This document shows positions 6,702 through 43,370 of a stretch of 64,000 nt of DNA, in pieces. Under the pieces are notes generated by a model, which was not told the origin of the DNA, searched no databases, and was given only the letters and a program-made list of their open reading frames with translations. The DNA comes from Elusimicrobiota bacterium (lineage in GTDB: Bacteria > Elusimicrobiota > Elusimicrobia > FEN-1173): contig JAYRXX010000063.1 of the NCBI GenBank assembly GCA_041917295.1, positions 21,583 to 85,582 of the forward strand. Direction: 5' to 3'. Both the position numbers and the translations under genes were made by a program. Positions within the stretch are counted from its first letter, which is position 1. Every line of letters starts with the position of its first letter.

Positions 6702-7043
6702 ATGTCCGTGTTCGTCCGCACGGTTGGACTGCTCATCTTGTCCAACCTGTTTATGACCTTCGCCTGGTACGCCCACCTGAAAAATTTGAGCCACCGCGGT
6801 TGGCTCACCGCCGCCGTCATCAGTTGGGGCGTGGCCTTTTTTGAATATTGCCTGCAGGTCCCCGCCAACCGGATCGGTTACACCGTCATGAGCCTGGCCC
6901 AATTAAAGATTCTCCAAGAAGCAATTTCGTTGACCGTCTTTGTCCCGTTCGCCGTTTTTTACATGGGCCAACCGCTTAAATGGGATTACCTCTGGGCGGC
7001 GCTGTGCATGATGGGAGCGGTTTTTTTCATTTTCCGCTCATGA
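6702..7043 (+). CDS. small DMT-like membrane protein (DUF486 family)
   Basis: 113 aa with three predicted TM helices and the motif [20 protein letters not shown] upstream. The stop overlaps the photolyase start (ATGA). Confidence 0.6.
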
Positions 7044-8392: not shown

Positions 8393-8397
8393 CGCCG

Positions 8398-8426
8398 TTG
8401 ACCTCATCGACGGAAAAGTGCTAAAT
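8398..8426 (+). promoter_or_regulatory. sigma70-like promoter for dnaX
   Basis: TTGACC (8398-8403), 17-nt spacer, CTAAAT (8421-8426). GGAGGGGG RBS at 8441-8448. ATG at 8454. Confidence 0.4.
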
Positions 8427-8453
8427 TGATTCGGCTCCCCGGAGGGGGCCCTT

Positions 8454-28017: not shown

Positions 28018-31004
28018 GGGACGATGTCCTCCTCCGATTCAATGGAGCCCAGGGCCCGACGTCGCGTGGGTCCGTGGGCCTTTCGGCACGCCCGGGCAAA
28101 CCCGCACAGGGAACAGTGGGAACCCGGCCCATCGGTCGGACGAATCACAAACTCGCCGTTGCGGATTTTTGATAACAGCTCCCCTCGCGCTTTAACGAGA
28201 GCGGGACCGTGTTTGTCCCAATCCTCCGCCGACAAAATGTCGGTTTCCGGTGCGGTCAACGATTCAAACCGAACGCCCCCGCACACCGCCCCGGGGCCCC
28301 ACAGGCCCTGGGCCGACACCATTTCCAAATAGGCGGGAGCTTGGTGAGCCTGACCGGCGGCCACCCGTTTCAGCAACGGCTCTTTCATGATTTTGTTTTT
28401 GTAATCCACCACGGTCCATCGGCCGGTCTGGGAAGAATAATCCACCCGGTCGATGCGTCCGTTCCAAAAAAAATCGGTGCCCGTCATGGGGGCTTTGATA
28501 ACCCACTCCAATTTCTCGGGCCGGGCGCCCTCTTGGATTAAGCGCGCCACGTCACGGCGAACAAAATCCGCCAATCGGCGGGTCACCCGATCGACCACCG
28601 TGCGCCACACCAACGGATAGGGGCCCGCTCCCTCGCCGACCGCGTCGGCAAAAAACGGGCCCGCCTCCTTTTGAAGATGGTCCGCGGCCGTGGCCGGGTC
28701 GGGAATCCCCTGAGCGGCAAAATCCCCATACACCCGATTCAACAAAGCGTGTTGAAGGGACCCCAACGCGGCGGGGAGAGGCCCCTCTTCGTCATAAAAA
28801 GGTCGAGGTTCTCGAATGCTCAACACCTGGGCCATAAAAAACTCGAACGGGCAATTTGCCGCCGTTTCCAACGCGCTCGGGGACAAACCCCGGCGAACGC
28901 ATCGGTCCAAAAAGGCCTCCGGTGCCTCCACGCGACCGTCCCACGGGCCTGGATGGTTCCCTTTAACCAGATGGGTCGCCCGTCGAACCGTTTCGCCCAA
29001 GGAACCCGTTGGATCCCGCCCATCTAAAATGTCCGCCAGGGCCGCTTCCCGGAGGGTCAATGTGTTTGCCGAAACAGACGTCCATTTGGCCAAGGGAGGA
29101 CGGGGTACCCGTTCGGCCTCGTCCACGTCGAGACCCAGAGCGCTCGCCAGGGTTCGCAGATACAAAGACGGAATTTCTGTCCGTCCTTCTTCTCCGGACC
29201 GGGAATAGACCAAATACAACCGCTCTTGAGCCGACGAAATTAACAGGGTGAACAACAGTTTTTCTTCATCGTGCCCTTCCCGTTTAGGCAAAATCCAATA
29301 TCCACCCGGGTCCCGCAAAAACCGTCGGGCGTCGTCGTTCAACAAGGGATCTTCCCGAATCACCCGGGGAAACACGCCTTCCTTCAGGCCAATCAAAAAC
29401 AAAACCCGGAAAGATTCTCCCCGGGCGTCCATGGCGCCCATGACCCGAACGCCCTGGACCGGCCCCGTCCCGTCGGCCCGGGCTTGACGCAGGGCCTCTG
29501 AAAAGGCCGAAACAAATTCGTCATTCTTTACCGGAGGCGAAAACCGATCCAATTCCGCTAAAGAATCAAGTGTTCGCGACACGGGATCCAGCGTATCCAG
29601 AACCGACGGATCCACCAGCCTTTGCCACTGTTCGCGAAGGGCATCGGCGTGGGCTTTCCACGATCGTTCCCCCTCATCAAAATCAAGCCCGGCTGACCCC
29701 TTGGAAGCCCCCCCGACTTGAAGAAACAATTCGGCAAGCGCCGGAATTTTTTGAGCGGCGGGCGCAAGAAGATGGTTGAACCCCGCCCGGGGCCCCGCCG
29801 TGATCAAATAGCTTCGGGCTTCCCGAACAGCCGCGGAGGTAAAGAGATCGGCCCGAAGGAGCGGAGAGGACAACAAATCAAGCAAAACGGTGCGATCGTG
29901 GCCGTGAGTCCGAACCCCCGCCAGGTTTAAAGCAAACCGAGCCGCGGGTTTGGCCAACAGGGGTCCCCCGTCAGTCAGAGAAAATGGGATCCCATGGGCG
30001 AAGAAAATTTCATGAACCAACCCGGTGTAATTTTCCACCCCGCGCGCCACCACGCCCATGTGGTTCCAATCCACAGGATTGGATCCTTCCCGCAACGTCA
30101 GGATTTCTTTGGCCACGCGCCAAACTTCGTCCCGTTCTCCGGAGACATTCAAAATGCGGACATTTCCCTCCCCCTGTTGCGTTAAGAACCCCGGATCGAA
30201 AATACGATCTGCCAGGACACCCAACACCCGCGGTTCGCGGGACGTTCCACTTTGAATTCGGGCCCCCCCCCACGGAATGTTGACGTCCAAAAATCGCTCG
30301 GCAAACGACCACCCCGGGCTCCCCTTGACGCAGGGGAAAAAAAGCGTGACCGGAGCCGATTGGGCCATAGCCCGGAAAAAATCCGACTGGGCCCCGTTTA
30401 AATCGTAAAACCCGTAGTAGAGGAATTCGTCGTAGACAGACAAGAGGGCCGGGTCGGATTCCACGGCGATCGCGGCCCGACGGGCCACATCGGCGGACCC
30501 CGCTACGTTCGCTTGGTCCAACCGGGCCCGATAGGCGTCGGCCATGTCAATCAACCGGTCCAGTTTTTCTTTGCCGGAAAAATTCAAATCAGAGAAATGC
30601 TCGCGGAAATGGCTACCCACCACGCCCGCTTCCACCAAATCCCGCAACGTGGACCGATACGCTCCCGCCAGTGCCCGGGCCCGCTCGGAACCCATTTGAT
30701 ATTCTTTCAACAAAATCCGTTCCACAACCCGTTCATGAAAAAGGTCGTCGTTGATCACGGTCGGCAACGGTCCACCGGCCAACCGCAACACATCCAACGC
30801 CAAGCTGTTTAAAGTATGGAACCGAATGTTGAACAAAGAAAGGCCCCGCTCGGCCGACAACAACCGCTGGAGTCGTTCGGCCATCCGCTGAGACGCCGTG
30901 ACCACCGCCACCCGCCGCCCTGGTCCCGGGGGGGTTGTTGTCAGATAGGAAACGAAGGATTCTTCAAGATAAGAAAACGAACCCACCTGAAGGGAAAGGG
31001 ACAT
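28014..31004 (-). CDS. addB: helicase/nuclease subunit B-like (inactivated helicase + RecB-type nuclease with Fe-S cluster)
   Basis: Nuclease motif GRIDRVDYSSQTGRWTVVDYKNK. C-terminal Cys cluster ...NCPFEF... and CSLCGFARAC (C-x2-C-x5-C), typical of the AddB iron-staple. Confidence 0.75.
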   Translation of the reverse strand: MSLSLQVGSFSYLEESFVSYLTTTPPGPGRRVAVVTASQRMAERLQRLLSAERGLSLFNIRFHTLNSLALDVLRLAGGPLPTVINDDLFHERVVERILLKEYQMGSERARALAGAYRSTLRDLVEAGVVGSHFREHFSDLNFSGKEKLDRLIDMADAYRARLDQANVAGSADVARRAAIAVESDPALLSVYDEFLYYGFYDLNGAQSDFFRAMAQSAPVTLFFPCVKGSPGWSFAERFLDVNIPWGGARIQSGTSREPRVLGVLADRIFDPGFLTQQGEGNVRILNVSGERDEVWRVAKEILTLREGSNPVDWNHMGVVARGVENYTGLVHEIFFAHGIPFSLTDGGPLLAKPAARFALNLAGVRTHGHDRTVLLDLLSSPLLRADLFTSAAVREARSYLITAGPRAGFNHLLAPAAQKIPALAELFLQVGGASKGSAGLDFDEGERSWKAHADALREQWQRLVDPSVLDTLDPVSRTLDSLAELDRFSPPVKNDEFVSAFSEALRQARADGTGPVQGVRVMGAMDARGESFRVLFLIGLKEGVFPRVIREDPLLNDDARRFLRDPGGYWILPKREGHDEEKLLFTLLISSAQERLYLVYSRSGEEGRTEIPSLYLRTLASALGLDVDEAERVPRPPLAKWTSVSANTLTLREAALADILDGRDPTGSLGETVRRATHLVKGNHPGPWDGRVEAPEAFLDRCVRRGLSPSALETAANCPFEFFMAQVLSIREPRPFYDEEGPLPAALGSLQHALLNRVYGDFAAQGIPDPATAADHLQKEAGPFFADAVGEGAGPYPLVWRTVVDRVTRRLADFVRRDVARLIQEGARPEKLEWVIKAPMTGTDFFWNGRIDRVDYSSQTGRWTVVDYKNKIMKEPLLKRVAAGQAHQAPAYLEMVSAQGLWGPGAVCGGVRFESLTAPETDILSAEDWDKHGPALVKARGELLSKIRNGEFVIRPTDGPGSHCSLCGFARACRKAHGPTRRRALGSIESEEDIVP

Positions 31005-31050
31005 ACGATGATTATAAAACTTCGATTAATTTATTTCAGAAGTCTCTCTA

Positions 31051-31965
31051 TCAGGCGGCGCCGGTGGCGGGCAAGCGGGATTCGGAGCTGGAGGAACGCA
31101 CTTCGGTCGTCAGCGTTGCTTCCAGATCGGAAAAAGAGGCCCCCGCTTTGTAGGAAAATCCGATCCGGACAACGTCCCCCAGCCCGACGGGGAAGGCTTT
31201 CGGCAGCGGTAAGATCAAATAGTGGCTGTGCCAATCAATGGTTTTTTTTGTTTCGGACACAACCGCCAGGATGTTTTTCGTAATAAACCGGAGGGCATTC
31301 AGGGCCCCTTCTTTTTCAATCTCAATTTCGCCGCTCCAATCGCAGCGGGCCGGGATGGAGTCTTTGTACGTATGCAACTGATACACTTTCGGCATCCCCA
31401 ACTCCCGTGTTTTTTCGTGCAAAACATTGGGATTTTGAAGAATAGGGATCGGGGCGTAATACCCATCGAAGGTAAAATCGTGTTCCACCGGTTGCACGGC
31501 CTGGATAAAGGCCTCGGGAACAAACTGGGGCAACGGGTTCCCAAACCGAGCCAGATATCGTTCTTTAAATGAATTGAGAATAGGAATTTGTTTTTCCCTC
31601 AACATGGCCACATGGATCATTTCACAGATCACCACGTCCACGGGTTCCGGGGGCAGGTATTTGAACGCGTCCGCTTTGATCACCTTTATTTTATTGCCGC
31701 ACTCGTTCATTGAAAGGATCTGTCTTGCTTTCGACACGAGTTCCGGATTGCGCTCAACGCACCACACTTTTCCGGCTTTGAGTCCCGCGAAATAGGAAAG
31801 AACCCCGGTTCCACCACCCAATTCCAAGACCTTCCCCCCCAGCGGAACCAAATAATCAATAGCGGTTTTAAACCCGCGCATGCGGGTGACGTCGCTGAGC
31901 ATGTTGTGATGGTAGTGCAGGGGGATAAACTGCCCCAGCACCGAGGAGTCGTCCGCTCGAACCAT
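31051..31965 (-). CDS. PRMT-like (protein arginine N-methyltransferase fold) class I SAM-dependent methyltransferase
   Basis: Motif I VLELGGGTGVLS, post-I VDVVICEMIHVAMLREKQ (PRMT double-E-loop-like), and an N-terminal ...HHNMLSDVTRMRGFKTAI pre-motif. GC is lower than in flanking core genes. Confidence 0.6.
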   Translation of the reverse strand: MVRADDSSVLGQFIPLHYHHNMLSDVTRMRGFKTAIDYLVPLGGKVLELGGGTGVLSYFAGLKAGKVWCVERNPELVSKARQILSMNECGNKIKVIKADAFKYLPPEPVDVVICEMIHVAMLREKQIPILNSFKERYLARFGNPLPQFVPEAFIQAVQPVEHDFTFDGYYAPIPILQNPNVLHEKTRELGMPKVYQLHTYKDSIPARCDWSGEIEIEKEGALNALRFITKNILAVVSETKKTIDWHSHYLILPLPKAFPVGLGDVVRIGFSYKAGASFSDLEATLTTEVRSSSSESRLPATGAA

Positions 31966-32090
31966 GCGAGCCTTCTTTACTTAAGTTGGGGACACGGCCA
32001 AACCGCTTCCGGGACCCAACGTAAGTATCGGACGAATTGGGAATTTCTTAACGGAGAGAAAAATAAAAATGGCAAAAACGTTGCTTGTAT

Positions 32091-32099
32091 GTGAAACAA
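32091..32099. repeat. target-site duplication, left copy (GTGAAACAA)
   Basis: Identical 9-mer directly flanks both IS ends. Confidence 0.6.
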
Positions 32100-33387
32100 C
32101 ACACCTGTCCGGGGAAAAAATAAGGGAATCCCCCGTTATTGGTAAAATGATTGTGCGAACAATTCATTTTATCGACGGAGGATTCCCGTGGCCCATTATA
32201 ACACGATTTTAAATCAGTTGCTGTTCCATGTCCCCCGACATCAATTCGACCGACTGGTCGAAACCCACCAAGCGGACCGCTACGCGAAAACGTTTAGCAC
32301 CTGGAACCAGCTAACGGTGATGCTCTATGCCCAATCGAGCGGTAAAGAGAGCTTGCGTGAAATTGAACAAGGACTGGAAACCCAAGAGAGCAAAACCTAT
32401 CACGTGGGATTGGCAGGGCCTGTTCGGCGGACGACGTTGGCGGATGCCAACGGGCGGCGAAAGTGGGAAATATTCAGGGGAGTGTTCGGAGAGTTATTGA
32501 CCCGGTGCCGATCGGTGACGCCAAAGCACAAATTTCGGTTTAAAAACCCACTGTATAGCATTGACTCGACGGTCATCAGCCTATGTTTGAGCCTTTTCCC
32601 CTGGGCGCGGTATCGAACGGCGAAGGGGGGCCTGAAACTTCATTACCAGCTGGATTACGCGGGCCATATCCCGAGCTTAATGGTGATCACAGAGGGTCGA
32701 GAAAATGATGTGTCCGTGGCGAAAAAGGATATACCGATTGAACCGGACAGCATCTATTGCTTTGATCGGGGGTATGTGGACTTCGGGTATTTCCGACGGT
32801 TGGAGAATATGGGGTGCACGTTCGTGACACGGGTGAAAAAGAACCTGTCCTATTGGGTTACCGGACAGCAGGAATGCTTGAAAAACCGCGGTGTTTTGAT
32901 GGACGCGACGATTGAGCGAGGGCAGGGGGAGTATGTGGGCAAGGATTGCCCGCTACGGCTGATCCGTTACTACGATAAGGAGAACGATCGGACGCTGGAG
33001 TTCCTGACCAACAACATGACGTTTGCAGCAACGACGATTGCGGAGATCTACAAAGCCCGCTGGCAGATCGAGGCATTCTTCAAGTGGATCAAGCAGAACT
33101 TGAAGATCAAGACGTTCCTTGGCACGACGGAAAACGCGGTGCTAAGCCAGATCTGGGTGGCGATGATTTATTACTTGTTGTTGGCTTACATCAAATATCA
33201 AACCAAATACGGCCGTTCGCTGTTCTATTTGCACCGGGTGATTAAGGAGACCTTGTTGGATCGGATCTCCCTGATGGATCTTCTCAACTTAAACGAAGCC
33301 AGGCTTAAAAGATTGAAGCGACTTGACCCGCAACTCCATTTTTCCTTTATCGCCACCTAATTTCCAAACTTTCCCCGGACAGCTGTG
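32100..33387 (+). mobile_element. intact IS4-family insertion sequence (1288 bp)
   Basis: 18-bp terminal inverted repeats CACACCTGTCCGGGGAAA (32100-32117) and reverse-complement CACAGCTGTCCGGGGAAA (33370-33387), 17/18 identical, starting with CA. 9-bp direct repeats flank it. A single DDE transposase ORF lies inside. GC is ~50%. Confidence 0.75.
32188..33360 (+). CDS. IS4-family DDE transposase
   Basis: 390 aa. N-terminal DUF4372-like region and a DDE domain with CFDRGYVDFGYF and ...YKARWQIEAFFKWIKQNLKIK (the YREK-like IS4 signature). Confidence 0.85.
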   Translation: MAHYNTILNQLLFHVPRHQFDRLVETHQADRYAKTFSTWNQLTVMLYAQSSGKESLREIEQGLETQESKTYHVGLAGPVRRTTLADANGRRKWEIFRGVFGELLTRCRSVTPKHKFRFKNPLYSIDSTVISLCLSLFPWARYRTAKGGLKLHYQLDYAGHIPSLMVITEGRENDVSVAKKDIPIEPDSIYCFDRGYVDFGYFRRLENMGCTFVTRVKKNLSYWVTGQQECLKNRGVLMDATIERGQGEYVGKDCPLRLIRYYDKENDRTLEFLTNNMTFAATTIAEIYKARWQIEAFFKWIKQNLKIKTFLGTTENAVLSQIWVAMIYYLLLAYIKYQTKYGRSLFYLHRVIKETLLDRISLMDLLNLNEARLKRLKRLDPQLHFSFIAT

Positions 33388-33396
33388 GTGAAACAA
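33388..33396. repeat. target-site duplication, right copy (GTGAAACAA)
   Basis: See the left copy. Confidence 0.6.
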
Positions 33397-33562
33397 TAGT
33401 TTACAAAAGATTTACAAGTTGTTAAGGCGAAATTAACTTGGTTCAGTTACAATATCCTCGTTAAAATTGTTTCACCTATTTTCCAAAGATAATTAATGGC
33501 TTATTTGCTTATGTCAATGCGCTACTGCATAGTTATACAGGAACGAAAGGCATTTCCATGCC

Positions 33563-33600
33563 CGTCATTCCGGCGTGGGGTTAGCCGGAATCCAGTCGTT
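33563..33600. repeat. short palindromic element, copy 2 (REP-like), just upstream of the giant gene
   Basis: CGTCATTCCGGCGTGGGGTTAGCCGGAATCCAGTCGTT. Shares the CGTCAT(C/T)CCGGC...GCCGG(G/A)ATCCAGTC(A/G)TT frame with 18183-18215. Confidence 0.35.
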
Positions 33601-33620
33601 TCTGTCTTGAGGGGGCCACA

Positions 33621-36600
33621 GTGATGTCGTTATTCTTTTCGGTTTCCGGGATTCGCAGGCGTTGGTCGGTCTTCGCGCTCAGTGTGATATTTTTTGGGTC
33701 CAATGTCCTTGCCGTCCATGCGGGAGAGGCCAGTTTTTGGGCGGAGCGTCGCAATGTCTCCCGACGAATGCATGGGGTGGAAGCAAAATCCGGGGCCACC
33801 GGGTTCGGGCTGACGGCGGAACAGTATCAGACCCTGACCCAACTGCCGAAGGCTGGCCAGTTGAACCCCGGCAGCATTCAGGGCGGTTCATCCGTCGGCT
33901 CTGGACGGGCAGTGTCCCCCCCTGTTTCGAACGTCTTTCGACCTTTTGAACACCCGACCCTTTTGGGTGACACCCCCACGTGGGTGTCACAGCTTATCCT
34001 CCCTTACGGGTCCATCCTTGAGGCGCATCTCGCCAAAAAAACCAACGCGCCCTTCATCGTCCACATCCAGGACGCCCACGGGATCGAGGAAGCCCAAAAG
34101 AACATGGCGGCCATGATCGAGGGGCTGAGCGAAAACCGCGGGGTGAGCCTGGTCGGGGTTGAAGCCGCCCAGGGCCCTTTCAACATGGGACCCTACCGGG
34201 ACTGGCCGGACGCAAATGTGACCCGTGACGTGGCCACCTATTTCCTCAAAGATGGCACAATCGGCGGAGCGGAATTCGCCGGGATCACCGCCCCCAAGCC
34301 TCTGACACTTTGGGGGATCGAGGATACAGACCTTTACCTCGCTAACGTTCATGCCTTAATAGACGCCAACAAGCTGAAACCGGAACTAACAAAAGCCTTA
34401 GCCGGTATCAAAAGGTCCGTTTCTTCCCTCAAGGAAACGATTTATTCCAAGGAACTGAAAGACTTTGACAAGCATTTCCAGGCCTATCAAGACCAACGGG
34501 AAGGGCTGGGAGCCTATGTCCGATTTTTAACGGCCGGATCACTGTCAAACAAAAAGGGGTTGCCGAACCTCCACCTTCTGGTCAAGGCTCTCATGGCCGA
34601 AGAGGCCCTGGACTTCAAGCAAGTGGAGAAAGAACGGCTCAAGCTGGTGGAAAGGCTGGCCCTTCGCCTTGCCAAGGATAAGCTGGACCTCCTTGTGCAA
34701 AAGAGCTTCCAATACCGCGCCGGTCAAATTGGCTACGGCGATTATCATCGGTTTCTAAAATCTCTGTGCCGTGAAAACGGGATCTCCCTGGGCGACCTGA
34801 ACCAACTGGACAATTATATCGAATACGTCCTCCTGGCAGACAAGATTGACCGAAACAACCTATTGAACGAGTTGACCCGCGCCGAAAAGGCCTCTCAAGA
34901 CCGGCTGGCGATCACGTCCGAACAAAAAAAACTACTGGCCGTCGCTCGGCGCCTGGCCCTCCTTGAAAAACTCTCGACCCACACCATGACGCCAGACGAT
35001 TGGGCGGCCTTCGAGAAAGAAAGAGAACATATTCTGACCATCGCCTCCGACCTTGCCACCCTTTCCGGCGAAGAACAGGCGCTACCCCTTGACACCCTGG
35101 CCGGTCTGATCAGTCCGTCAGAAAGTTTTTGCCGTTTTGCCATCGACCGCAACGCCGCTTTCATTGACAACCTTTCCGCCCAAATGGAAATGAAAAAAGC
35201 ATCCTCGGCAGTCCTCGTAGCCGGAGGCTTCCATTCCGACGGCCTAACCCGCCTTCTCCGGGAAAGAGACTTATCATATGTGGTGGTCACCCCCAAAATC
35301 AGCGAAGTCCCCAAAGAGAATAATTACTTGGATGTATTTGCCCGTGACCCATTGCCCCTAGAAAAACTGTTCGCGGGGGAAAAGATTTCGTTAAACAGCG
35401 CTAGGCTGTCCGGTGGAACGATGAGGGGGTTTGAGGGCCCGGCGTCCGCTTTTCGGCGCGAAGGGGTGGCCACCATGGCCGCCACGGCTTCTCTTGAACC
35501 GAACGTGGATCACACAGCTCTCAGTCGGACGGCGGAGAGCACCGCGGCGGAGCTTAGCGCACCCATGTCGATCAAGATTTCCGGCAGTTCCAACCGTACG
35601 TGGACAACCATCGACACCAATGGGGACGGTCAAGTCGACCTGAAAATGATAGCGACTCCTTCGGGACGTTCGCTGCCGCCGCAGGAAGATTCCCCTCCCT
35701 TGTCAACAGTGGAGATCGACGGCCGCGCCAAAATTACCTTTCACCAAATCCGTCCAGGTTTATTCAAAAAAGTTTGGGCTTCGATCCGGAAAATATTTCC
35801 CATCCGCAGTCCGGTGAACAGCCGTGGTGGGGTCGAACAAACACCTACATCGAACACCGCTTTCCCCATCCTTCATGTCCCCCAGGGGGGCCTGATTGGG
35901 AAGTTTCGTCTTTTGTCCGACCCTCAATGGGATCCCGCTTCAAAAACTGTCTCTTTTGTGGGGCAAGACATTGAAAACCCGGGCAAACCACCCGAAACAA
36001 TTCGCCTTGAGGCTGAAATCGTTGATCGAGAGGAATGGGCCGACCGCCTTTATTCGAGTCTATCTGGTAGGGAAAACGACTTGGTGACTGAGATCATGGA
36101 TTGGTTTCAAGACGCTTTCCATGGTCCATTGATCGTTTTAAGAGACAATCCCATCACCCAAGGCATAGGGACCCAGGTGGGAGAGCAAGGCGGATTCGTA
36201 GCCGTTTCTGAACGCTACGCTAATAATCACATCGCTTGGTTTCACGAGATTGCGGAAGCCATGGCCCCGAATGCCGATGAAATCCTCTCACGACTTTCCC
36301 CAAACTCACAGGCCTGGTACAAGGCCCATATGTCCAAACCGGGCCGACAGGGTATGGAACGGCACTACGCCATCCGGGCTCTCCAACGTGAAGTATTTCG
36401 GCAATCTGACTTAAGTTTGACCTATGAAATCAAGGGCCGATTGTCCGCCACGGATATCTCGAAAAAACTCAGTTCGGCCAAATTAAAAAAAGGGTTTGTC
36501 GTTCGGAATGAGTTTTCCCGGCAACGCTCTTCGCAGAACAGCCGGGAGGGTGAAATATCTTTATTGGAAGATCTGATCAAGACCCAGAGGAAGGCCGAGG

Positions 36601-39600
36601 AAGAAGAAATTGAAAGACAACGGATTGAACAAGAAGAGATCGAACGGCGCCATGCCGAAGAAACAGCTGTAAGGGTTAAAATTCGATCTCTTCTCGATCG
36701 AGCAAAGGGGATTATCGAAGCCCCCTTGGCTTCGGATTTGGCGCACGAACACCGGTTAATAGAAAAAGACAAGGCCGCCCTCGCCGCCGTTTCCGTTCTT
36801 CGGCCGTTATTCGAAATGAATCCCGAATGGGTGGCGGAGGCACTGGTTGAAGATTTGATGGCTGGTGGCGCAACGCCGGCGGACCTCTATTCCCTCATGG
36901 GGAAAGACTCATTTGGGGTATACCTTGCGAAGAATGTTGTCCCCCAGTTGGGAGAGAGGGCCTTATCGCAAACATTATTAAAGCTGATGGAGAAACGATC
37001 GACATTGCAATGGAATAGACGAGCATTCAAAGCCCACGCTGCCGTCGTCACCCTTTTCGTCGACCATGCGCCAAGACTGGGGGAACGTGTAACCGCTGAG
37101 GTCGCCGGGCCGCTTCTCATGGCCCTACGAAAGGAATTTAGGGCTCGGCCGTACACGCGCTTGAGTTTTGTTCAAGGCATTCCTGATTACAGGAGATACT
37201 TCGACGTGGATGGAGACGTGGTCTTCTTTAAAGACGACTTCTTGAATAGATTGCTGGTGCGAGACATGGGAGCCCGCCGGAACCTACACACGCTGTACCA
37301 TGAGGCCATTCGCGAACAGGAATATTTGTCAAGTTTAACCGACAACTTGCTGTCAAAGGACACCGAGGGGCATCTTTTTAACGCCCTCCTTTCAGCGCTC
37401 CATCAAGAGGGAAACCCGCTCGTGCGTGCTCATTTGGAGAGTAGTCTGATCCGCGCCTGGAGAACCACCCTCCCCTCCGCGCATGAGAGGTTATTAAACC
37501 TTGTCAAGGAGATTCAAGCAACACATCACAATGGCGATGAGAGATTAAAAGAAGACGCGATAGGACGCTTGTTAATGATCGCACACAAAGATGGTTGGGA
37601 TTCTGGAATTTCCTCTGACATTCTTTTTTCAATGGCCATGGATGGCTTGCCGGGATTATTCGAAGCGGTTCGATCCCAATCTTCGGAAATAGACAAAATG
37701 CCTCGCGGTATTGAAAGGGATATGGCAAACAGGCAAATGGGAGAGACGATGACGGCGGTGAAAAAGAGACTCGCCATTTTGTGGAGGGTGGCTTTAAGCG
37801 CGACGTCCCAATCATCCGTTCCGGCATCGATCTCCGTGGCGGGACGAGCCATGGCTTACCTTGTTGAAGTGGCGCAAATGGAAGGGGACATCGCCATCCG
37901 GTCCGAAACCATCGCTCTCCTTGGGATCGCGGTCGAAAAAGGTTACCCAGCCGCGGTTCGTGCGTTCCTTCCCTCAATACAGCCGTCTTCCCAACAATTC
38001 GAAAACCTTTTTTATGACAACCCCAGTGATGAGGTCATTCTTAACGCCCTACGGTCAAAGGCCATGTCTGTTCGTCTGGGGTTCCTCTTATTGCGTCGAT
38101 ACAAAAATGATCCAAGCCGCGCGGGGTTGCTGAAAGCCATCGTATTGGATAGGAAAACAAACGAGGGGGATTCCTTGGGCATTAATGCCCAAATTCGTTT
38201 CTATGCCTTTGCGCTCTACGGCAGTCAGTATTTGAAAACAACGAATGAAGATGGGATAACCTCTTCTTACGACGAGAATCAATTTCAAGAAATGGCCGGT
38301 GCGCTTGCGCCGCATGCACACGGTTTTATCGGGACCGCCATCGATGATTCAATACTCATCGACCGGCTGTTTGATGGTTGGCCTGGGCAGGACGAAGAGT
38401 TGGGAGCGTACGCAATCGCCACGGTCCTTGATGCCTTTCATGGGAATTTGACCGGTTTGAAAGCGAAGGGTTTTGTGGCGGTGGCAGAGAGAGTGGTTAA
38501 CGCCCGCGCCAGCTCCTATCTAAATAATGCCTATGATGATCTCTCGTTCGGAGGTCACTTTCTCCGAAGAGCTCAAAACCCCGTTCAATTCTTTTTTCAA
38601 GTAATGGTCCACGAACTCACGCACATCTTGTTGAAGAACCAACATGATTATTTGGCGGGGGAATTAGTCGGTGGGACGATTCATGAATGGTTGGCTGATT
38701 TGGCCGCGGAGGATTTTTCCAGGAGAAGGGGTTTATCCCTGGAGGATTACCGAGATATCTTAGGGTTTGATAGGGATTTATCATTTGTTGAAGAGGATTC
38801 GTTCCATACCATTGAGGTTCATGAGGGTGCACGGGCCCAGCAGTTGCTGATTGCAGGGTGGCTTTCGGAAAACGGTCTCACGCTTGATCCGTCAAAAATG
38901 GTTCGTGCGGCATTGGATGTTCTACCGGGAACGTCGGGCGATGACCTGGACGTTGTGGTAAGAAAGGTCCTTGAGAGGTTTGCGGGACGTCCGCTGGAGG
39001 ACTCAGAAACAGCGGGGATGAATCGTATGTTTCTGTCTTTGTTTGATTATAGATTCGATGAATTTATTGAGGGGAAGTATCGGCAAAGAATTCTTTCTTT
39101 GCCCGTTTTGCGTGAAATATTGAGCCCCTTGTTGGATGGGTTGGCCACCTCTCTTCAATCGGTGTTCCCTTCCGGACAGGAGGAAGGGGTTTTGGCGGAG
39201 GCGACCGCTCGCTCCCTGGCCGGAGCCGGCCTATGGACCGGGGGCCTCTTTCCATTGTTATCCCTGGGAACCAAAAACGTTTTGGACGCTGTCGCGAAGA
39301 GCCTTGCGGCATGGGGATTGGAACCAATAAAAGACATGAGTCCACGACTTTGGCCGCAAATGATTCAGGAGGCGATGGCGGGGGGACTTCAGTTAGAGCT
39401 GATACAATCCATCGTGGGCGCCCTGGCGAGGGACGGATTCATGGAAGAGCGTGCGTGGACTGCGAAGGAAAACGCCGCTCTTGAGAAGGTCCAAAGACGA
39501 TTGGCGTCGGACCTCCCGGGGGTTCGCGCCATTGAGTATGTGCGACTGGGATTTGGCAAAAAGGCCGTGGATCCCTCCACGGGGGCCGAAGTATCATTGG

Positions 39601-40562
39601 ACACAAGCTTGTTTATGGGGTTTGACATGAAACCGGATGGGACGTTAAGAGTTTTTGTCCATCCCGACGTTTTCAATGGGGCCGCCGACCCGGCCGCGTT
39701 TCTTCTCGATGCCATGATGCACGAGATTCTTGAAGGACCAGGGGGTGTGGAACACTCGATCCTTGAGGACGAAGGCATCGGAATGGACCGAAATATCGAT
39801 TGGCAGACAGCGGAGGCGCGAATTTCATCAGTCCAGTTGAGGTTGGCAACGAACTTATTGGAGCGATGGTCACGGGATGGTGATCCAGATGCCCTAATAA
39901 AATTGGCGATGGTTGGGGCTCATGGGGTGAATTGGGATGGAGCGCGGCCAGCGACCCCTGTCGGGGCCATGGGGCCGACGTTCGCTCTGGCGGGGGACCG
40001 TGGACAGCGGGCGTTGGCTCACCTCATGGCTGTGGCGGAGGATGTCGGAATGGATTCCACCCTGGTCGAACGATTGTTGCATCGGGGCCTTTTGGTGGCG
40101 GGTTGGCGGGCGGTATTGGCCGAGGCCCCCGGCGCGTTCCACTATGTGGACGTTTCCCCTCTGGATGAGGCTCCGGAATCCGAAAATCGGTTGGCCTGTG
40201 AAACGCTTCTTTCCGCTTTGGAGGTTGTTGTGGCCGCCGACCCAAATCCAACAAAGAGGGCCCAACAGATTTTTATCGGATGCGACAACCAGGGTCAAAA
40301 AACCTTCGTTGAGTCGCGGTTTCCGACCTTAAAGGGCTCTCGGTTTAAAACCAATCGATTTGAGGGAAAGGATATCGCTGTCGGATGGGCGGCAACCGAG
40401 GTCGACGAGGCCGGGTCGTCCTCTTTGCACGTTCACACGGTGCGGGAGTTGAACACCGACGGCACGCCTCCAGGGATCGACGTGGTGCCCAGCCCCTACA
40501 ACTTGAGCACGATCATGCAAAAAGCATTGGATTCCATTATCCGCGTCTTGATTGCCGCTTAA
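33621..40562 (+). CDS. giant secreted protein (2313 aa) of unknown function with HExxH zincin-like motif
   Basis: GAGGGGG RBS, then GTG at 33621 / ATG at 33624. Signal peptide MMSLFFSVSGIRRRWSVFALSVIFFGSNVLAVHAGEA. One HExxH (VMVHELTHILL, ~residue 1660) with a downstream Glu (GTIHEWLAD). Charged coiled-coil stretch EEEIERQRIEQEEIERRHAEE. No Walker motif or other recognisable domain. GC is clearly below genome background. Confidence 0.7.
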   Translation: MMSLFFSVSGIRRRWSVFALSVIFFGSNVLAVHAGEASFWAERRNVSRRMHGVEAKSGATGFGLTAEQYQTLTQLPKAGQLNPGSIQGGSSVGSGRAVSPPVSNVFRPFEHPTLLGDTPTWVSQLILPYGSILEAHLAKKTNAPFIVHIQDAHGIEEAQKNMAAMIEGLSENRGVSLVGVEAAQGPFNMGPYRDWPDANVTRDVATYFLKDGTIGGAEFAGITAPKPLTLWGIEDTDLYLANVHALIDANKLKPELTKALAGIKRSVSSLKETIYSKELKDFDKHFQAYQDQREGLGAYVRFLTAGSLSNKKGLPNLHLLVKALMAEEALDFKQVEKERLKLVERLALRLAKDKLDLLVQKSFQYRAGQIGYGDYHRFLKSLCRENGISLGDLNQLDNYIEYVLLADKIDRNNLLNELTRAEKASQDRLAITSEQKKLLAVARRLALLEKLSTHTMTPDDWAAFEKEREHILTIASDLATLSGEEQALPLDTLAGLISPSESFCRFAIDRNAAFIDNLSAQMEMKKASSAVLVAGGFHSDGLTRLLRERDLSYVVVTPKISEVPKENNYLDVFARDPLPLEKLFAGEKISLNSARLSGGTMRGFEGPASAFRREGVATMAATASLEPNVDHTALSRTAESTAAELSAPMSIKISGSSNRTWTTIDTNGDGQVDLKMIATPSGRSLPPQEDSPPLSTVEIDGRAKITFHQIRPGLFKKVWASIRKIFPIRSPVNSRGGVEQTPTSNTAFPILHVPQGGLIGKFRLLSDPQWDPASKTVSFVGQDIENPGKPPETIRLEAEIVDREEWADRLYSSLSGRENDLVTEIMDWFQDAFHGPLIVLRDNPITQGIGTQVGEQGGFVAVSERYANNHIAWFHEIAEAMAPNADEILSRLSPNSQAWYKAHMSKPGRQGMERHYAIRALQREVFRQSDLSLTYEIKGRLSATDISKKLSSAKLKKGFVVRNEFSRQRSSQNSREGEISLLEDLIKTQRKAEEEEIERQRIEQEEIERRHAEETAVRVKIRSLLDRAKGIIEAPLASDLAHEHRLIEKDKAALAAVSVLRPLFEMNPEWVAEALVEDLMAGGATPADLYSLMGKDSFGVYLAKNVVPQLGERALSQTLLKLMEKRSTLQWNRRAFKAHAAVVTLFVDHAPRLGERVTAEVAGPLLMALRKEFRARPYTRLSFVQGIPDYRRYFDVDGDVVFFKDDFLNRLLVRDMGARRNLHTLYHEAIREQEYLSSLTDNLLSKDTEGHLFNALLSALHQEGNPLVRAHLESSLIRAWRTTLPSAHERLLNLVKEIQATHHNGDERLKEDAIGRLLMIAHKDGWDSGISSDILFSMAMDGLPGLFEAVRSQSSEIDKMPRGIERDMANRQMGETMTAVKKRLAILWRVALSATSQSSVPASISVAGRAMAYLVEVAQMEGDIAIRSETIALLGIAVEKGYPAAVRAFLPSIQPSSQQFENLFYDNPSDEVILNALRSKAMSVRLGFLLLRRYKNDPSRAGLLKAIVLDRKTNEGDSLGINAQIRFYAFALYGSQYLKTTNEDGITSSYDENQFQEMAGALAPHAHGFIGTAIDDSILIDRLFDGWPGQDEELGAYAIATVLDAFHGNLTGLKAKGFVAVAERVVNARASSYLNNAYDDLSFGGHFLRRAQNPVQFFFQVMVHELTHILLKNQHDYLAGELVGGTIHEWLADLAAEDFSRRRGLSLEDYRDILGFDRDLSFVEEDSFHTIEVHEGARAQQLLIAGWLSENGLTLDPSKMVRAALDVLPGTSGDDLDVVVRKVLERFAGRPLEDSETAGMNRMFLSLFDYRFDEFIEGKYRQRILSLPVLREILSPLLDGLATSLQSVFPSGQEEGVLAEATARSLAGAGLWTGGLFPLLSLGTKNVLDAVAKSLAAWGLEPIKDMSPRLWPQMIQEAMAGGLQLELIQSIVGALARDGFMEERAWTAKENAALEKVQRRLASDLPGVRAIEYVRLGFGKKAVDPSTGAEVSLDTSLFMGFDMKPDGTLRVFVHPDVFNGAADPAAFLLDAMMHEILEGPGGVEHSILEDEGIGMDRNIDWQTAEARISSVQLRLATNLLERWSRDGDPDALIKLAMVGAHGVNWDGARPATPVGAMGPTFALAGDRGQRALAHLMAVAEDVGMDSTLVERLLHRGLLVAGWRAVLAEAPGAFHYVDVSPLDEAPESENRLACETLLSALEVVVAADPNPTKRAQQIFIGCDNQGQKTFVESRFPTLKGSRFKTNRFEGKDIAVGWAATEVDEAGSSSLHVHTVRELNTDGTPPGIDVVPSPYNLSTIMQKALDSIIRVLIAA

Positions 40563-40677
40563 AAATTCAACCTATTTGCCCCACCCGGGTTAAGGGGACT
40601 ATAGTGAGCATTTTACAATGCAAAATGCTCACTATCTATACGAAATGCACGGTCCACAACCGACCGGCCAGATGTTT

Positions 40678-41022
40678 CTAACGGCCCAGGATGATGTCGA
40701 TACCGGTCAGAACGAGGTTCAGTTGGCGGGATGACAGTTTTCCCGCCCGCTCGGTCAAAAGGGTTCTGTCGAGAGCGATGATCTGGGAGACGTTGGCGAC
40801 GGAATCTTTTGGGAGGTCCGTCTCGTTTGCGGACAAAAAGACGTTCCCGGGAGCCTCCGCCCACTGGAGATTGCTTGTCAACGGGACACAAACAATAGTC
40901 GCGATTCGGCTCCTGTTCAAAGGGTCGCCCTGGACGACGGCGACGGGACGTCGAAAGCCGGGCCCCGACCCCGTAGGGTCGGGAAGATCGGCCCACCATA
41001 TCTCCCCCTGGGCGACTTTCAC
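40678..41022 (-). CDS. type II toxin, PemK/MazF family endoribonuclease
   Basis: ...GEIWWADLPDP...RPVAVVQGD...VCVPLTSNLQ... fits MazF/PemK. The GTG start overlaps the antitoxin stop (GTGA). The ORF-track TTG start at 41097 would overlap the antitoxin by 79 nt. Confidence 0.7.
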   Translation of the reverse strand: MKVAQGEIWWADLPDPTGSGPGFRRPVAVVQGDPLNRSRIATIVCVPLTSNLQWAEAPGNVFLSANETDLPKDSVANVSQIIALDRTLLTERAGKLSSRQLNLVLTGIDIILGR

Positions 41023-41255
41023 CAGGACGAAGTTTTTAGACGACGGCGGCCCGCTTCTTGAAGAAAAGGATCGAGCGGTTCGCTCATTTCCCCGCAAACC
41101 CTGTTCATGGCTTCCGTGACTTCATTGGGGGAATGACGGTACAAGTATTCCTGCATGGCCTCGCTGAGGAGGCGGCTTCGTGATTTCTTTACTCGGCGCG
41201 TGTATTCCTCCACCTGGCGAAACAGGCGGTTCGGCATGGAAATGGCTGTTTTCAT
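41019..41255 (-). CDS. ribbon-helix-helix (CopG/MazE-like) antitoxin
   Basis: MKTAISMPNRLFRQVEEYTRRVKKSRSRLLSEAMQEYL has an RHH beta-strand + two helices pattern. Lies upstream of and overlapping the toxin. Confidence 0.6.
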   Translation of the reverse strand: MKTAISMPNRLFRQVEEYTRRVKKSRSRLLSEAMQEYLYRHSPNEVTEAMNRVCGEMSEPLDPFLQEAGRRRLKTSSW

Positions 41256-41369
41256 ACCATTAGTATGACTCACACACATACGGCTGTCAAGGCCTGACAG
41301 AGCATTTTTTCCACGTTGGCAATTCCCTCATCCGGCCCTTCGGGTCGGCTTCGAGTCCCACGCTAAAAC

Positions 41370-41453
41370 TGCCCGGGGCGGGACTCGAACCCGCACGAGC
41401 CTTTGGCTCACGGCATTTTAAGTGCCGTGTGTCTGCCGTTCCACCACCCGGGC
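41370..41453 (-). tRNA. tRNA-Leu (anticodon UAA), type II with long variable arm
   Basis: Reverse strand reads GCCCGGG-TG-GTGGAACGGCAGACAC-A-CGGCA-CTTAAAA-TGCCG-TGAGCCAAAGGCTC-GTGCGGGTTCGAGTCCCGC-CCCGGGC-A. Full cloverleaf. Anticodon loop CTTAAAA. CCA is not encoded. Confidence 0.85.
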
Positions 41454-41987
41454 CAAATTAATTTGTTTTCTTCTGTTCTTACCGCGATGAGTCGGTTTAA
41501 GACTGTGACAGTTGGGACAGAGGATCCTTAGATTCACAAGCCGATTGTCCGTTCGATCACCATTAATGTGATCCAATTCGAGCGGCAGATAGCCATCGGC
41601 CGTTTTTTTTGCCCACCCGCATTCTTCACACGCCTTGCTTTTTAAACCCTCAGAAAACAACCTTTTTTTTAGCTTAAAAATTTGAAAATCACTCCCCATG
41701 ACAAGAATTTTACTCAGTGGAAGCCGGGGCTTTCCAATGCCTCGAAGACCGCGATTCCAGGCTTGGTGTTTAAAATGTGAGATATCCAACCCCAACTCGG
41801 CAATATACTTTCGGAGCTGAGAATAATTCCCCCCAGCCTCCCTAAGCCCCAGACGCATCAACAACTGGCGGTAGCTGTAAACTGCGGGGACAGCGGACTT
41901 CAATGTCTCCTCGGACCACTTACGCTCTCGCATGGACCGAATCATACAATTCGGCAAAGGCATAAACAACGGCACACGCAAAAACAT
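41418..41987 (-). CDS. HNH endonuclease family protein
   Basis: HNH motif ...LELDHINGDRTDNRLVNLRILCPNCH..., plus upstream zinc-finger-like CEECGW. The last 36 nt of the ORF overlap the 5' half of the tRNA-Leu. Confidence 0.55.
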   Translation of the reverse strand: MFLRVPLFMPLPNCMIRSMRERKWSEETLKSAVPAVYSYRQLLMRLGLREAGGNYSQLRKYIAELGLDISHFKHQAWNRGLRGIGKPRLPLSKILVMGSDFQIFKLKKRLFSEGLKSKACEECGWAKKTADGYLPLELDHINGDRTDNRLVNLRILCPNCHSLKPTHRGKNRRKQINLARVVERQTHGT

Positions 41988-42005
41988 CGCCTTCGGAGAT
42001 GCGAT

Positions 42006-43370
42006 TTATCCCCTTACCGGCGGCAACCCCGCCAGGGCCATGGCCAGTTCGCCTTCGTCCAATTTTTGGTCCACCAACTTTCCGGCGTTGTAATCCATGT
42101 AGGCCTGCATATCGAAATGACCGTGCCCGCACAAATTGAACAGGATGGCCCGGGAAACCCCTTCGGCCTTGCATTTCAACGCCTCGTCAATGGCGCCCCG
42201 GATGGCGTGGTTGGCTTCCGGCGCCGGCATGATTCCTTCCGCCCGGGCAAACTGGACCCCCGCCGAAAAACACGCCGTTTGATGGAACGCCGCCGCCTCG
42301 ATCAGCCCCAATTCTTTCACGTGACTGACCAACGGCGCCATCCCGTGATATCTCAACCCCCCGGAATGGAACCCCGGCGGCGTGAACGTGGACCCCAGGG
42401 TGTGCATTTTGGTTAATGGAGTCAAATGGGCCGTGTCGCCGAAATCGTAAGCGAACTTGCCGCGCGTCAAACTCGGACAGGCCGCGGGTTCCACCGCCAC
42501 CACGCGGACTTTTTTTCCACCCCGCAGTTGGGCCCCCAAAAACGGAAACACCAGGCCACCGAAATTCGACCCGCCCCCGGTACACGCCACCAAAATGTCG
42601 GGATAATCGTCGGCCATCGCCATCTGTTCCATGGCTTCCAACCCGACCACCGTCTGATGAAGGAGAACGTGGTTTAACACCGAACCCAAAGCGTAGTTGG
42701 TGTCGTCGCGCTGGGCGGCCACTTCCACGGCCTCGGAAATGGCAATACCAAGGCTTCCCGGATGTTTGGGATTCTTGGCCAAAATGTCCCGGCCCGACTG
42801 GGTTTCGTTGGAGGGCGAGGCCACACAGCGGGCCCCATAGGTTTCCATTAACGCCCGCCGGTATGGTTTTTGATCGTAAGACACCCGCACCATAAAAACC
42901 TGAACATCAATGCCAAACAACGCCCCCGCGAACGCCAACGACGATCCCCATTGGCCCGCGCCGGTTTCCGTGGCGATTTTTTTGATGCCCGCTTCTTTAT
43001 TGTAAAACGCTTGGGGAACGGCGGTGTTGGGTTTATGGCTCCCGGCGGGGCTGACACCCTCGTACTTGTAATAAATCCGCGCGGGCGTATCGAGCGCTTT
43101 CTCCAAACGGCGCGCTCGGAAAAGCGGCGACGGCCGCCATTGGCGATAAATGTCTCGGACCGGCTCGGGGATTTCAACATCCCGCTCCCGGGTCACTTCC
43201 TGCTGGATCAACGACATGGGGAACAGAGGTTCCAGGTCGCCCGGCGTCACCGGCGCGTGGGTGCCCGGGTGCAACACCGCCGGCGGCGGCGCGGGCAAAT
43301 CGGCCACCAGGTTATACCAGTGTTTCGGAATTTTTGATTCGTCGAGAAAATACTTAACGGTTTCGCTCAT
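42006..43370 (-). CDS. trpB: tryptophan synthase beta chain, TrpB2-type (PLP-dependent)
   Basis: 454 aa, typical TrpB2 length. PLP-lysine region and GGGSNFGGLVFPF glycine loop. Confidence 0.85.
   Translation of the reverse strand: MSETVKYFLDESKIPKHWYNLVADLPAPPPAVLHPGTHAPVTPGDLEPLFPMSLIQQEVTRERDVEIPEPVRDIYRQWRPSPLFRARRLEKALDTPARIYYKYEGVSPAGSHKPNTAVPQAFYNKEAGIKKIATETGAGQWGSSLAFAGALFGIDVQVFMVRVSYDQKPYRRALMETYGARCVASPSNETQSGRDILAKNPKHPGSLGIAISEAVEVAAQRDDTNYALGSVLNHVLLHQTVVGLEAMEQMAMADDYPDILVACTGGGSNFGGLVFPFLGAQLRGGKKVRVVAVEPAACPSLTRGKFAYDFGDTAHLTPLTKMHTLGSTFTPPGFHSGGLRYHGMAPLVSHVKELGLIEAAAFHQTACFSAGVQFARAEGIMPAPEANHAIRGAIDEALKCKAEGVSRAILFNLCGHGHFDMQAYMDYNAGKLVDQKLDEGELAMALAGLPPVRG

Follow-up and report, generated by a model that had tools for sequence, protein, structure and literature searches.

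Layered accessory DNA at a tRNA-Leu locus of Elusimicrobia, with a giant-gene tract probably exchanged between sister species by homologous recombination

In this study, a stretch of 64,000 nucleotides (nt) from an Elusimicrobiota bacterium (GenBank assembly GCA_041917295.1, contig JAYRXX010000063.1, positions 21,583 to 85,582; hereafter the window) was analyzed around its tRNA-Leu(UAA) gene. Between an addB-type gene and a trpB2-like gene, this locus holds a methyltransferase gene, an insertion sequence, a gene coding for a giant protein of 2313 residues, a mazEF-type toxin-antitoxin pair, the tRNA and an HNH gene. An earlier sequence-only reading had taken positions 31005-41453 for a single genomic island. 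We propose instead, with a probability of about 0.68, that the trpB2-addB interval is a hotspot filled in layers, and that the tract with the giant gene and mazEF was exchanged recently, probably by homologous recombination. The features of the locus are the following (window coordinates, strand where it applies).

24760-28017: AddA-type gene (NCBIfam addB/addA families)
28014-31004, minus: AddB-type nuclease gene (Pfam PDDEXK_1, NCBIfam), conserved left flank of the variable interval
31051-31965, minus: class I S-adenosylmethionine methyltransferase gene resembling protein arginine methyltransferases (PRMT-like; Pfam Methyltransf_25/31), on the same strand as addB and directly preceding it
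31892-41453: tract of raised identity to the sister assemblies L001 and L003, with a core at 33400-41341 and a shoulder at 31892-32099
32100-33387, plus: IS4-family insertion sequence of 1288 bp, transposase at 32188-33360
33621-40562, plus: giant gene, 2313 residues, no Pfam match
40601-40635: palindrome with 17-nt arms and a 1-nt loop, 94% complementary, between the convergent giant and mazF genes
40678-41279, minus: type II toxin-antitoxin pair, PemK/MazF toxin at 40678 to ~41031 and small partner open reading frame (ORF) at 41019-41279
41342-41386: 45-nt segment made of 28 nt downstream of the tRNA and the last 17 nt of the tRNA 3' end, one copy in the window
41370-41453, minus: tRNA-Leu(UAA) (ARAGORN and Rfam), conserved anchor of the interval, at which the 99%-identity block ends on its right
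41418-41987, minus: free-standing, homing-endonuclease-like HNH gene (Pfam HNH/HNH_3; PADLOC 'HEase', 1.6e-19), between trpB2 and the tRNA
42006-43370, minus: TrpB2-like PALP enzyme (Pfam PALP), conserved right flank

Family searches agree with the gene calls made previously from the letters, namely the methyltransferase, the DDE transposase, the 2313-residue ORF, PemK/MazF with its small upstream ORF, HNH, AddAB and the TrpB2-like enzyme. The tRNA was also correctly said to point its 3' end into the segment, as ARAGORN and Rfam place it on the minus strand, but position 41453, which had been given for this end, is the 5' end: the 3' end lies at 41370 and faces the toxin-antitoxin and giant genes. 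An Rfam scan of 30.5-42.5 kb had the tRNA as its sole match. The palindrome is A+T-rich and terminator-like, with no obvious T run, and is possibly a bidirectional terminator shared by the two convergent genes.

By its nearest matches among database proteins, the window belongs to an uncultivated lineage of Elusimicrobia. We compared the interval in a handful of relatives, all of them metagenome-assembled genomes or metagenome contigs. They were collected by protein search and context look-ups, which replaced an AddB search of metagenome contigs that returned only uninformative relatives at 25-31%. Synteny around TrpB2 in genome contigs was informative only at L003 and L021, the other 78 of 80 loci being of no use for a protein 76-87% identical across Proteobacteria, Verrucomicrobia, Acidobacteria and others, and L089 was uninformative, its contig beginning inside addB. 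Gene orders were as follows.

L021 (AddB 45%, TrpB2 82% amino-acid identity): LOG-(pilins)-trpB2-tRNA-Leu-addB-addA, an empty site
L087 (2.76-Mb contig, AddB 55%): trpB2-SNase-tRNA-Leu-Band_7-two small ORFs-addB
L086 (AddB 62%): tyrosine integrase, AbiEi and AbiEii directly upstream of addB, no tRNA-Leu within 10 kb
L088 (AddB 70%): methyltransferase (73% amino-acid identity) adjoining addB, after which the contig ends
L001 and L003 (GCA_018057525.1 and JADJZR01, two independent assemblies of one sister species): gene order of the window minus the insertion sequence
L092 (a third lineage): giant gene-tRNA-Leu-trpB2, with many frameshifts typical of long-read assemblies, so that its numbers are rough

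Orthologues of addB and addA border the interval in L021, L086, L087 and L088, those of trpB2 adjoin tRNA-Leu in L021, L087 and L092, and tRNA-Leu is present between trpB2 and addB in L021, L087, L092, L001 and L003. The interval is a variable site, because it is empty in L021 and carries other cargo in L087 (SNase, Band_7 and TPR genes) and in L086, which holds a different mobile element at the equivalent addB-side site. The giant gene and mazEF are found at the tRNA-Leu locus in three species-level lineages, and the whole giant-gene block, confined to the closest relatives of the window, is absent from L021, L087 and L086. The trpB2-addB interval around tRNA-Leu(UAA) is thus a hotspot of accessory DNA in this Elusimicrobia lineage. 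The presence of accessory DNA in a variable site beside tRNA-Leu, as suggested before, is supported by this distribution; an empty site, with trpB2, tRNA-Leu, addB and addA in a row, had been proposed as a check and exists in L021, and the block is not present in all relatives, which had been named as the finding that would speak against an island. In L086, at 6828-9880, the tyrosine integrase is followed by AbiEi and AbiEii, and a Mu-type rve transposase lies further upstream. As for the right flank, the TrpB2-like enzyme is 76-87% identical to proteins of Betaproteobacteria, Gammaproteobacteria, Verrucomicrobia, Acidobacteria, Myxococcota and others; being far more conserved than the neighbouring AddB, it is either unusually constrained or widely transferred.

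The window was then aligned to L001 and L003, with sliding identity and mismatch maps, and synonymous divergence (dS) and the ratio of nonsynonymous to synonymous divergence (dN/dS) were computed per gene by the Nei-Gojobori method. Two rows, DAO (part) and residues 844-1193 of the giant protein versus L092, were left out as frame artefacts. Values against the sister assemblies are given here in the order of the map.

addB (start only): dS 0.48, dN/dS 0.18
methyltransferase: dS 0.71 / 0.67 (L003/L001), dN/dS ~0.09
giant gene: dS 0.011, dN/dS 0.82-0.84
mazF: dS 0, dN/dS not defined
antitoxin: dS 0-0.018, dN/dS not defined
HNH: dS 0.205, dN/dS 0.11
trpB2: dS 0.44 / 0.40 (L003/L001), dN/dS 0.03
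LOG: dS 0.53 / 0.51 (L003/L001), dN/dS 0.04

Identity to the sister assemblies is 80-90% up to position 31891, ~94% over 31892-32099, and reaches 99.06% over 33400-41341, with 75 differences over 7942 nt. No difference is seen in the tRNA between the window, L001 and L003. To its right, 8 differences are found in 41454-41529 and 4 in 41530-41777, and identity is ~88-92% from 41778 on; overall, the flanks diverge from these assemblies by ~11-18%. Synonymous divergence is 40-60 times lower in the tract formed by the giant gene and the toxin-antitoxin pair than in its neighbours, and this step is present in both independent assemblies. As selection on proteins cannot produce such a difference in dS, the tract must have been shared very recently by lineages that are ~12-17% diverged.

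The third lineage gives depth to this picture. Its giant gene is 86.6-89.4% identical to that of the window at the nucleotide level, and its trpB2 87.0%; since these divergences are alike, the giant gene and the toxin-antitoxin pair are old residents of the locus in this clade. Downstream of its giant gene, L092 retains just 22 codons of mazF before the tRNA, and it lacks HNH. The 99% tract was therefore either exchanged by lineages in which the locus was already established, or replaced in one of these lineages. Its left edge, the step at 31891/31892, falls at a 64-nt perfectly conserved stretch at the 5' end of the methyltransferase gene, and its right edge at the invariant tRNA; no repeats were found at the edges. 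Since both edges lie in homologous sequence devoid of repeats, we infer from the position of the identity step that the tract with the giant gene and mazEF was probably moved by homologous recombination through its flanks.

The other components of the interval have histories of their own, so that the single island of ~10.4 kb does not hold as a unit: the methyltransferase, the giant gene with mazEF, the IS4 element and the HNH gene differ in age. The same is true of the left boundary placed at ~31005, as the methyltransferase is as diverged as the core genes and the recent tract begins only at 31891/31892. With its dS of 0.67-0.71 against the sister genomes, the methyltransferase is an older accessory gene at core-like divergence; its orthologue adjoins addB in L088 (positions 1-867), and none was found in the interval of L021, L086 or L087. 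The PRMT-like assignment made earlier is borne out, as the PDB sequences that match residues 17-155 best (E 7e-11 to 1e-5) belong without exception to protein arginine methyltransferases. Its best solved relatives are all of the eukaryotic type (PRMT3/6/7/CARM1/PRMT1).

The IS4 element is a separate insertion, private to the lineage of the window. Its transposase matches NCBIfam NF033592 above cut-off (E 4.3e-79), as well as Pfam DUF4372 (PF14294) and DDE_Tnp_1 (PF01609). It has imperfect terminal inverted repeats of 18 nt (17/18 nt) at 32100-32117 and 33370-33387, and is bounded by a 9-bp target duplication, GTGAAACAA, at 32091-32099 and 33388-33396; in L001 and L003 the target is uninterrupted and GTGAAACAA occurs there once, as in an empty site. 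The insertion lies in the spacer between the divergent methyltransferase and giant genes, 233 nt upstream of the start of the latter, and may affect the expression of both. It was considered as a vehicle for the island and rejected, being present in a single copy in the window, with its own target duplication, and absent from the sister genomes.

At the other end, the HNH gene is a separate insertion at the 5' side of tRNA-Leu, absent from L021, L087 and L092. Its ORF enters the tRNA 5' end by 36 nt on the same strand (41418-41453, and likewise at L001 8914-8949), in such a way that its TAA stop codon (41420-41418) is the tRNA anticodon and its last 11 residues, ARVVERQTHGT, are encoded by tRNA sequence. 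This arrangement suggests that the gene inserted directly against tRNA-Leu, and that the tRNA may be co-transcribed with it. On the 3' side, the 45-nt segment of the window is present in L001 and L003 as a perfect direct repeat around a G+C-rich spacer of 93 nt (L001 8700-8882), so that these genomes have 138 extra nt beside the tRNA. Nothing else at the locus resembles an attachment (att) site. The repeat does not enclose the island, and may have been left behind by an integrated element since lost, or have arisen by tandem duplication. As att sites of the island its two copies were considered and rejected, since both lie towards the tRNA with no more than 93 nt between them.

Between the tRNA and the giant gene lies the toxin-antitoxin pair. 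The toxin matches Pfam PemK_toxin (PF02452) above cut-off (E 1.1e-22), and the 86-residue partner ORF, which overlaps the toxin start, has only weak, sub-threshold matches of ribbon-helix-helix or HicB type in Pfam and NCBIfam. Both genes are identical or nearly so in the sister assemblies, and the 22 codons left of mazF in L092 are a remnant. This putative pair may help to retain the giant-gene block.

The composition of the segment sets it apart from its surroundings. The low-GC segment next to tRNA-Leu is real, with a G+C (GC) content of 0.528 over 31005-41453, versus 0.590 in the rest of the window; among 654 non-overlapping 10.4-kb windows elsewhere in the 64 kb, GC content is never below 0.573, and the lowest 10.4-kb window overall begins at 31351. 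The value of 63-65% quoted before for the flanking genes was too high, the addA-type, addB-type and trpB2 genes being at 61.6%, 58.9% and 59.3%. The tetranucleotide signature is clearly deviant as well: taking the 64-kb window alone as reference, zero-order-normalised profiles of 5-kb windows correlate with the rest at r = 0.77-0.79 between 33 and 41 kb, and at 0.94-0.98 elsewhere. At third codon positions, the GC content (GC3) of background genes is 0.671 on average (SD 0.060), compared with 0.590 for the giant gene, 0.636 for the methyltransferase, 0.670 for the transposase, 0.521 for HNH and 0.729 for mazF. Codon positions 1 and 2 hold much of the drop in GC. Of the two gene-level checks, codon usage comes out as deviant, with a distance of 0.303 for the giant gene and 0.14-0.21 for other genes of ~1000 codons or more, whereas the GC3 shift is only modest, about 1.3 SD. 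Within the giant gene, GC3 is 0.63-0.67 at both ends, near the genome average, and 0.53-0.55 in the central 3 kb, and the few differences from the sister species cluster at ~34.9-38.9 kb. The centre of the gene may have had a different history from its ends, e.g. via domain shuffling.

The following succession of events would account for the locus. The PRMT-like methyltransferase would have arrived early. The gene for the giant, exported protein with two predicted hydrolase domains would then have settled together with the mazEF-type addiction module, a pair common to three species-level lineages. The HNH gene would have inserted at the 5' side of tRNA-Leu, and IS4 would have transposed into the spacer between the methyltransferase and giant genes, in the lineage of the window only. 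Finally, the tract with the giant gene and mazEF would have been exchanged very recently between this lineage and the sister species, by crossovers in conserved flanks (left, the 5' end of the methyltransferase gene; right, the invariant tRNA), a type of exchange for which no integrase is needed. The presence and absence of the block across relatives, the divergence step, and the target duplication of the insertion sequence with its empty site are observations; how the tract recombined, in what order the events took place and what the giant protein does are our interpretation of them.

Several points weigh against this scenario. The recombination mechanism is deduced from the position of the identity step, and site-specific or transposon-mediated transfer with eroded signatures is possible. 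The tract has identity shoulders (~94% at 31892-32099, and a 98% patch at 41530-41777), so that several events may be superimposed. A clean empty site is found in one relative only, L021, among the handful examined. Lastly, the dS of the giant gene versus L092 is 0.15-0.19, about half the 0.37 of pyrG, so that an apparently old, vertically inherited giant gene may hide earlier exchanges, the L092 numbers being rough because of the many frameshifts.

Had the segment been a classical tRNA island, a tyrosine-integrase element bearing the giant gene and mazEF would have entered the 3' end of tRNA-Leu, and its integrase and far att site would have been lost later. We hold this to be possible, if doubtful. 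Such an origin would fit the orientation of the tRNA, whose 3' end faces the segment, and the deviant composition; the final 17 nt of the tRNA are part of the perfect 45-nt repeat of the sister genomes, so that an att-like segment was duplicated there, a tyrosine integrase with AbiE lies directly upstream of addB in L086, and P0002, a homologue of the giant protein with 47% identity, is encoded beside tRNA-Tyr and a 94-residue integrase fragment. These last three elements hint that an integrase may have brought the block in originally, leaving no trace in the window. Indeed, no integrase ORF or fragment was found among the ORFs of at least 50 residues in 31005-42000, the coding ones being otherwise assigned, and no repeat of tRNA-Leu of at least 14 nt exists anywhere in the 64 kb, where only chance 11-13-mers occur; on both counts the absences reported earlier are upheld. 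The 45-nt repeat of the sister genomes brackets no more than its 93-nt spacer, the components differ in age, and the recently moved tract has its edges in homologous genes. What remains of the island as first described is its site and its accessory nature; its unity, the left limit drawn for it and a mechanism of integrase type are not supported. Both processes could have acted in turn, an integrase for the original acquisition and homologous recombination for the recent spread.

Neither inheritance nor artefact seems to us to replace exchange by homologous recombination as an explanation of the tract. If the region were native and vertically inherited, its low GC would come from the amino acids of the giant protein and its high identity from strong selection, and this would agree with a GC drop held largely by codon positions 1 and 2, with a GC3 only ~1.3 SD off, and with a giant gene at one locus in three lineages. 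Yet the whole block is missing from three relatives, tetranucleotide signature and codon usage are deviant, and selection cannot reduce synonymous differences 40-60-fold in a gene whose dN/dS is high, not low; already contradicted by the dS step, this possibility is very improbable. The idea that the 99% tract results from assembly or binning, by merging two co-occurring related populations, starts from the fact that all genomes are metagenome-assembled and that L092 has many frameshifts. It is scarcely credible, given that two independent assemblies (GCA_018057525.1 and JADJZR01) give the identical step versus the window, that the tract differs by 75 substitutions or indels, a private IS4 with its target duplication and a 138-nt indel at the tRNA, and hence does not stem from the same reads, and that populations ~12-17% diverged do not normally co-assemble.

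We now turn to the giant protein. Searched whole or as four pieces against Pfam, NCBIfam, PADLOC and PDB sequences, it gave only noise (EF-hand, alginate lyase, SduA, E >0.005). It had been described as devoid of recognisable domains, which is true as regards sequence profiles, whereas structure prediction gives two hydrolase folds. Its predicted parts are listed below.

Residues ~1-35: predicted Sec signal peptide, read from sequence alone (RRR, a hydrophobic core, then VHA preceding GE)
Residues ~120-565 (window 33978-35315): TIKI/TraB/Ere-fold domain with a helical insert, from structure prediction
Residues ~1364-1800 (window 37710-39020): gluzincin module, HELTH at residue 1664
Residues ~2080-2313 (window 39858-40559): recurrent C-terminal module

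The AlphaFold2 model is confident over residues 120-565 (predicted local distance difference test, pLDDT, ~90), and shows in this region the parallel beta-sheet core flanked by helices of the TIKI superfamily. For the gluzincin module, the model (pLDDT 91.7) has the zincin fold. The protein is therefore predicted to combine a TIKI/TraB/erythromycin-esterase fold with a thermolysin-like zinc-protease module, both putative hydrolases, and may be an exported, extracytoplasmic factor of hydrolase or protease type, secreted or at the surface.

A database search yielded at least 49 relatives of the giant protein, of 1414-4015 residues, in Elusimicrobia and Omnitrophota. These 49 have in common only the N-terminal residues ~20-600, always N-terminal in the relative too. 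Their C-termini are unrelated and, according to precomputed Pfam annotation, comprise protein kinase, PEP-utilising/PPDK, SpoIIE, M48 and ABC1, glycosyltransferase, methyltransferase and FHA domains. Across 30-46 members, the TIKI-like domain has invariant residues at Q150, H153, E181, G232, F503, R510, G535, G536, H538 and P558, and nearly invariant ones at H148 and D151. The TIKI superfamily is characterized by a parallel beta-sheet core and a catalytic set of two His and two Glu, represented by E3900, H3902, E3930 and H4030 in RRSP, and by the pair H85-E113 in Bcr135 (PMC6254334). The giant family has D151-x-H153, with E181 28 residues further on, as between H3902 and E3930 of RRSP and between H85 and E113 of Bcr135, and H538 in a GGFH motif. 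Judged by such spacing and motifs, the catalytic set appears to be intact, with Asp instead of Glu as the first acid.

An exhaustive HMMER search with residues 1114-2313 gave 41 proteins, ~35 of which (763-6545 residues) have residues ~1364-1794. This central module has an HExxH motif, followed ~20 residues on by HE-x-x-[AS]-D, in all but two fragmentary sequences; H1664, E1665 and E1689 are invariant, and H1668 and D1693 at least 90% conserved (21-35 sequences), in keeping with the gluzincin pattern of a zinc-binding HExxH and a third-ligand Glu ~20 residues or more further on. The C-terminal ~230 residues form a third recurrent module.

The dN/dS of the giant gene, 0.82-0.84 versus the sister species, is 0.38-0.43 versus L092, compared with 0.02-0.11 for neighbouring genes, and the gene seems to be a weakly constrained, dispensable and fast-evolving cargo. 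In L092, the gene is interrupted by an ISL3-family element (3550-4912), which has a target duplication of its own and is inserted in the palindrome TCTTTAAAGA, equivalent to ~37223-37234 of the window. Many other genes of the L092 contig are fragmented too, probably by long-read errors. In L001 and L003, one C is gained in a C7 tract (33909-33915) and one lost from a CC pair (34366), which places 150 codons, including the catalytic HIQDAH, out of frame (L001 ~1267-1725), while the original frame is stop-free; at 37970, another +1 is present in L003 only. The shared frameshifts could be very recent lesions making a pseudogene, phase variation by slipped-strand events, or shared sequencing errors.

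Homologues of the giant protein are found in unrelated neighbourhoods. Besides P0002, P0004 (L090 16882-22014) lies elsewhere in the genome that carries the integrase and AbiE at the addB site (L086), and no partner is common to the neighbourhoods of P0002, P0003 and P0004. The gene for P0004 is followed by one for a 1710-residue protein with a PPDK_N domain, and then by hrcA-grpE-dnaK; that for P0003 (L091 6182-11848) is followed by a bacterial alpha-2-macroglobulin gene, coding for a protease-trapping protein. One may speculate, although we regard it as improbable, that these are undescribed Sec-exported modular proteins in which the N-terminal TIKI-fold hydrolase anchors, processes or delivers interchangeable C-terminal enzymes (zinc protease, kinases, PEP-utilising domains, phosphatases, glycosyltransferases), a polymorphic-effector-like family exchanged between species in accessory loci.

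As a region, the locus is of an ordinary and well-documented kind, a tRNA-anchored plasticity hotspot filled stepwise. Slightly unusual is that, in an uncultivated phylum, genes have flowed between species diverged by ~12-17%, the most likely route being flanking homology without an integrase. The annotation of the giant family, although a structure-based prediction, is the more original and more useful result: proteins listed in databases as hypothetical and domain-free are predicted to start with a TIKI/TraB/erythromycin-esterase-fold domain with a complete catalytic set, and these predicted domains offer a testable handle on giant proteins of Elusimicrobia and Omnitrophota. If they do form a polymorphic-effector-like family, this could bear on the cell-cell interactions of largely uncultivated, possibly host- or prey-associated bacteria.

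With polymorphic toxins and MARTX-type effectors, the giant family shares a constant N-terminal module joined to variable C-terminal enzymes, accessory contexts and fast evolution. It departs from them in that no secretion genes were found in the segment, and no dedicated secretion system, repeat-containing delivery region or adjacent immunity gene was identified, the genes downstream being a convergent mazEF pair; moreover, instead of typical toxins, the C-termini of the family carry kinases, PEP-utilising enzymes, phosphatases and glycosyltransferases. With the TIKI superfamily (Tiki, TraB/PrgY, ChaN, erythromycin esterases, HopBA1, MARTX RRSP), it has in common the acid-x-His motif, a Glu 28 residues downstream and a C-terminal GxxH (PMC6254334), and, as in RRSP, the domain is housed in a very large, multi-domain exported protein. 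Its distinctive traits are a helical insert of ~280 residues between the two halves of the core, Asp for the first Glu, a strictly N-terminal position straight after the signal peptide, and no Pfam profile match to the families of the superfamily. As compared to thermolysin-like gluzincins (M4, M1, M36), the central module sits in the middle of proteins of 763-6545 residues, matches no Pfam peptidase family, and has an extra invariant motif of HEGARAQ type downstream.

The putative toxin-antitoxin pair resembles MazEF/PemIK modules of mobile DNA, in that it borders an accessory block and its PemK-fold toxin comes after a short gene overlapping it, and differs by a partner protein that matches no antitoxin family above threshold. 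The insertion sequence, a passenger event, has nothing unusual for the IS4 family: a DDE transposase with an N-terminal DUF4372, imperfect inverted repeats, a 9-bp duplication, and an empty site in relatives. As to the locus as a whole, it resembles tRNA-flanked islands and plasticity hotspots by its position between core genes beside a tRNA, its being present, absent or refilled in relatives, its deviant composition, and its content of an insertion sequence, a toxin-antitoxin pair and a gene for a large exported protein. Unlike such islands, it is not bounded by an integrase or by att repeats, its parts are of different ages, and its latest movement was apparently an allelic exchange via flanking homology.

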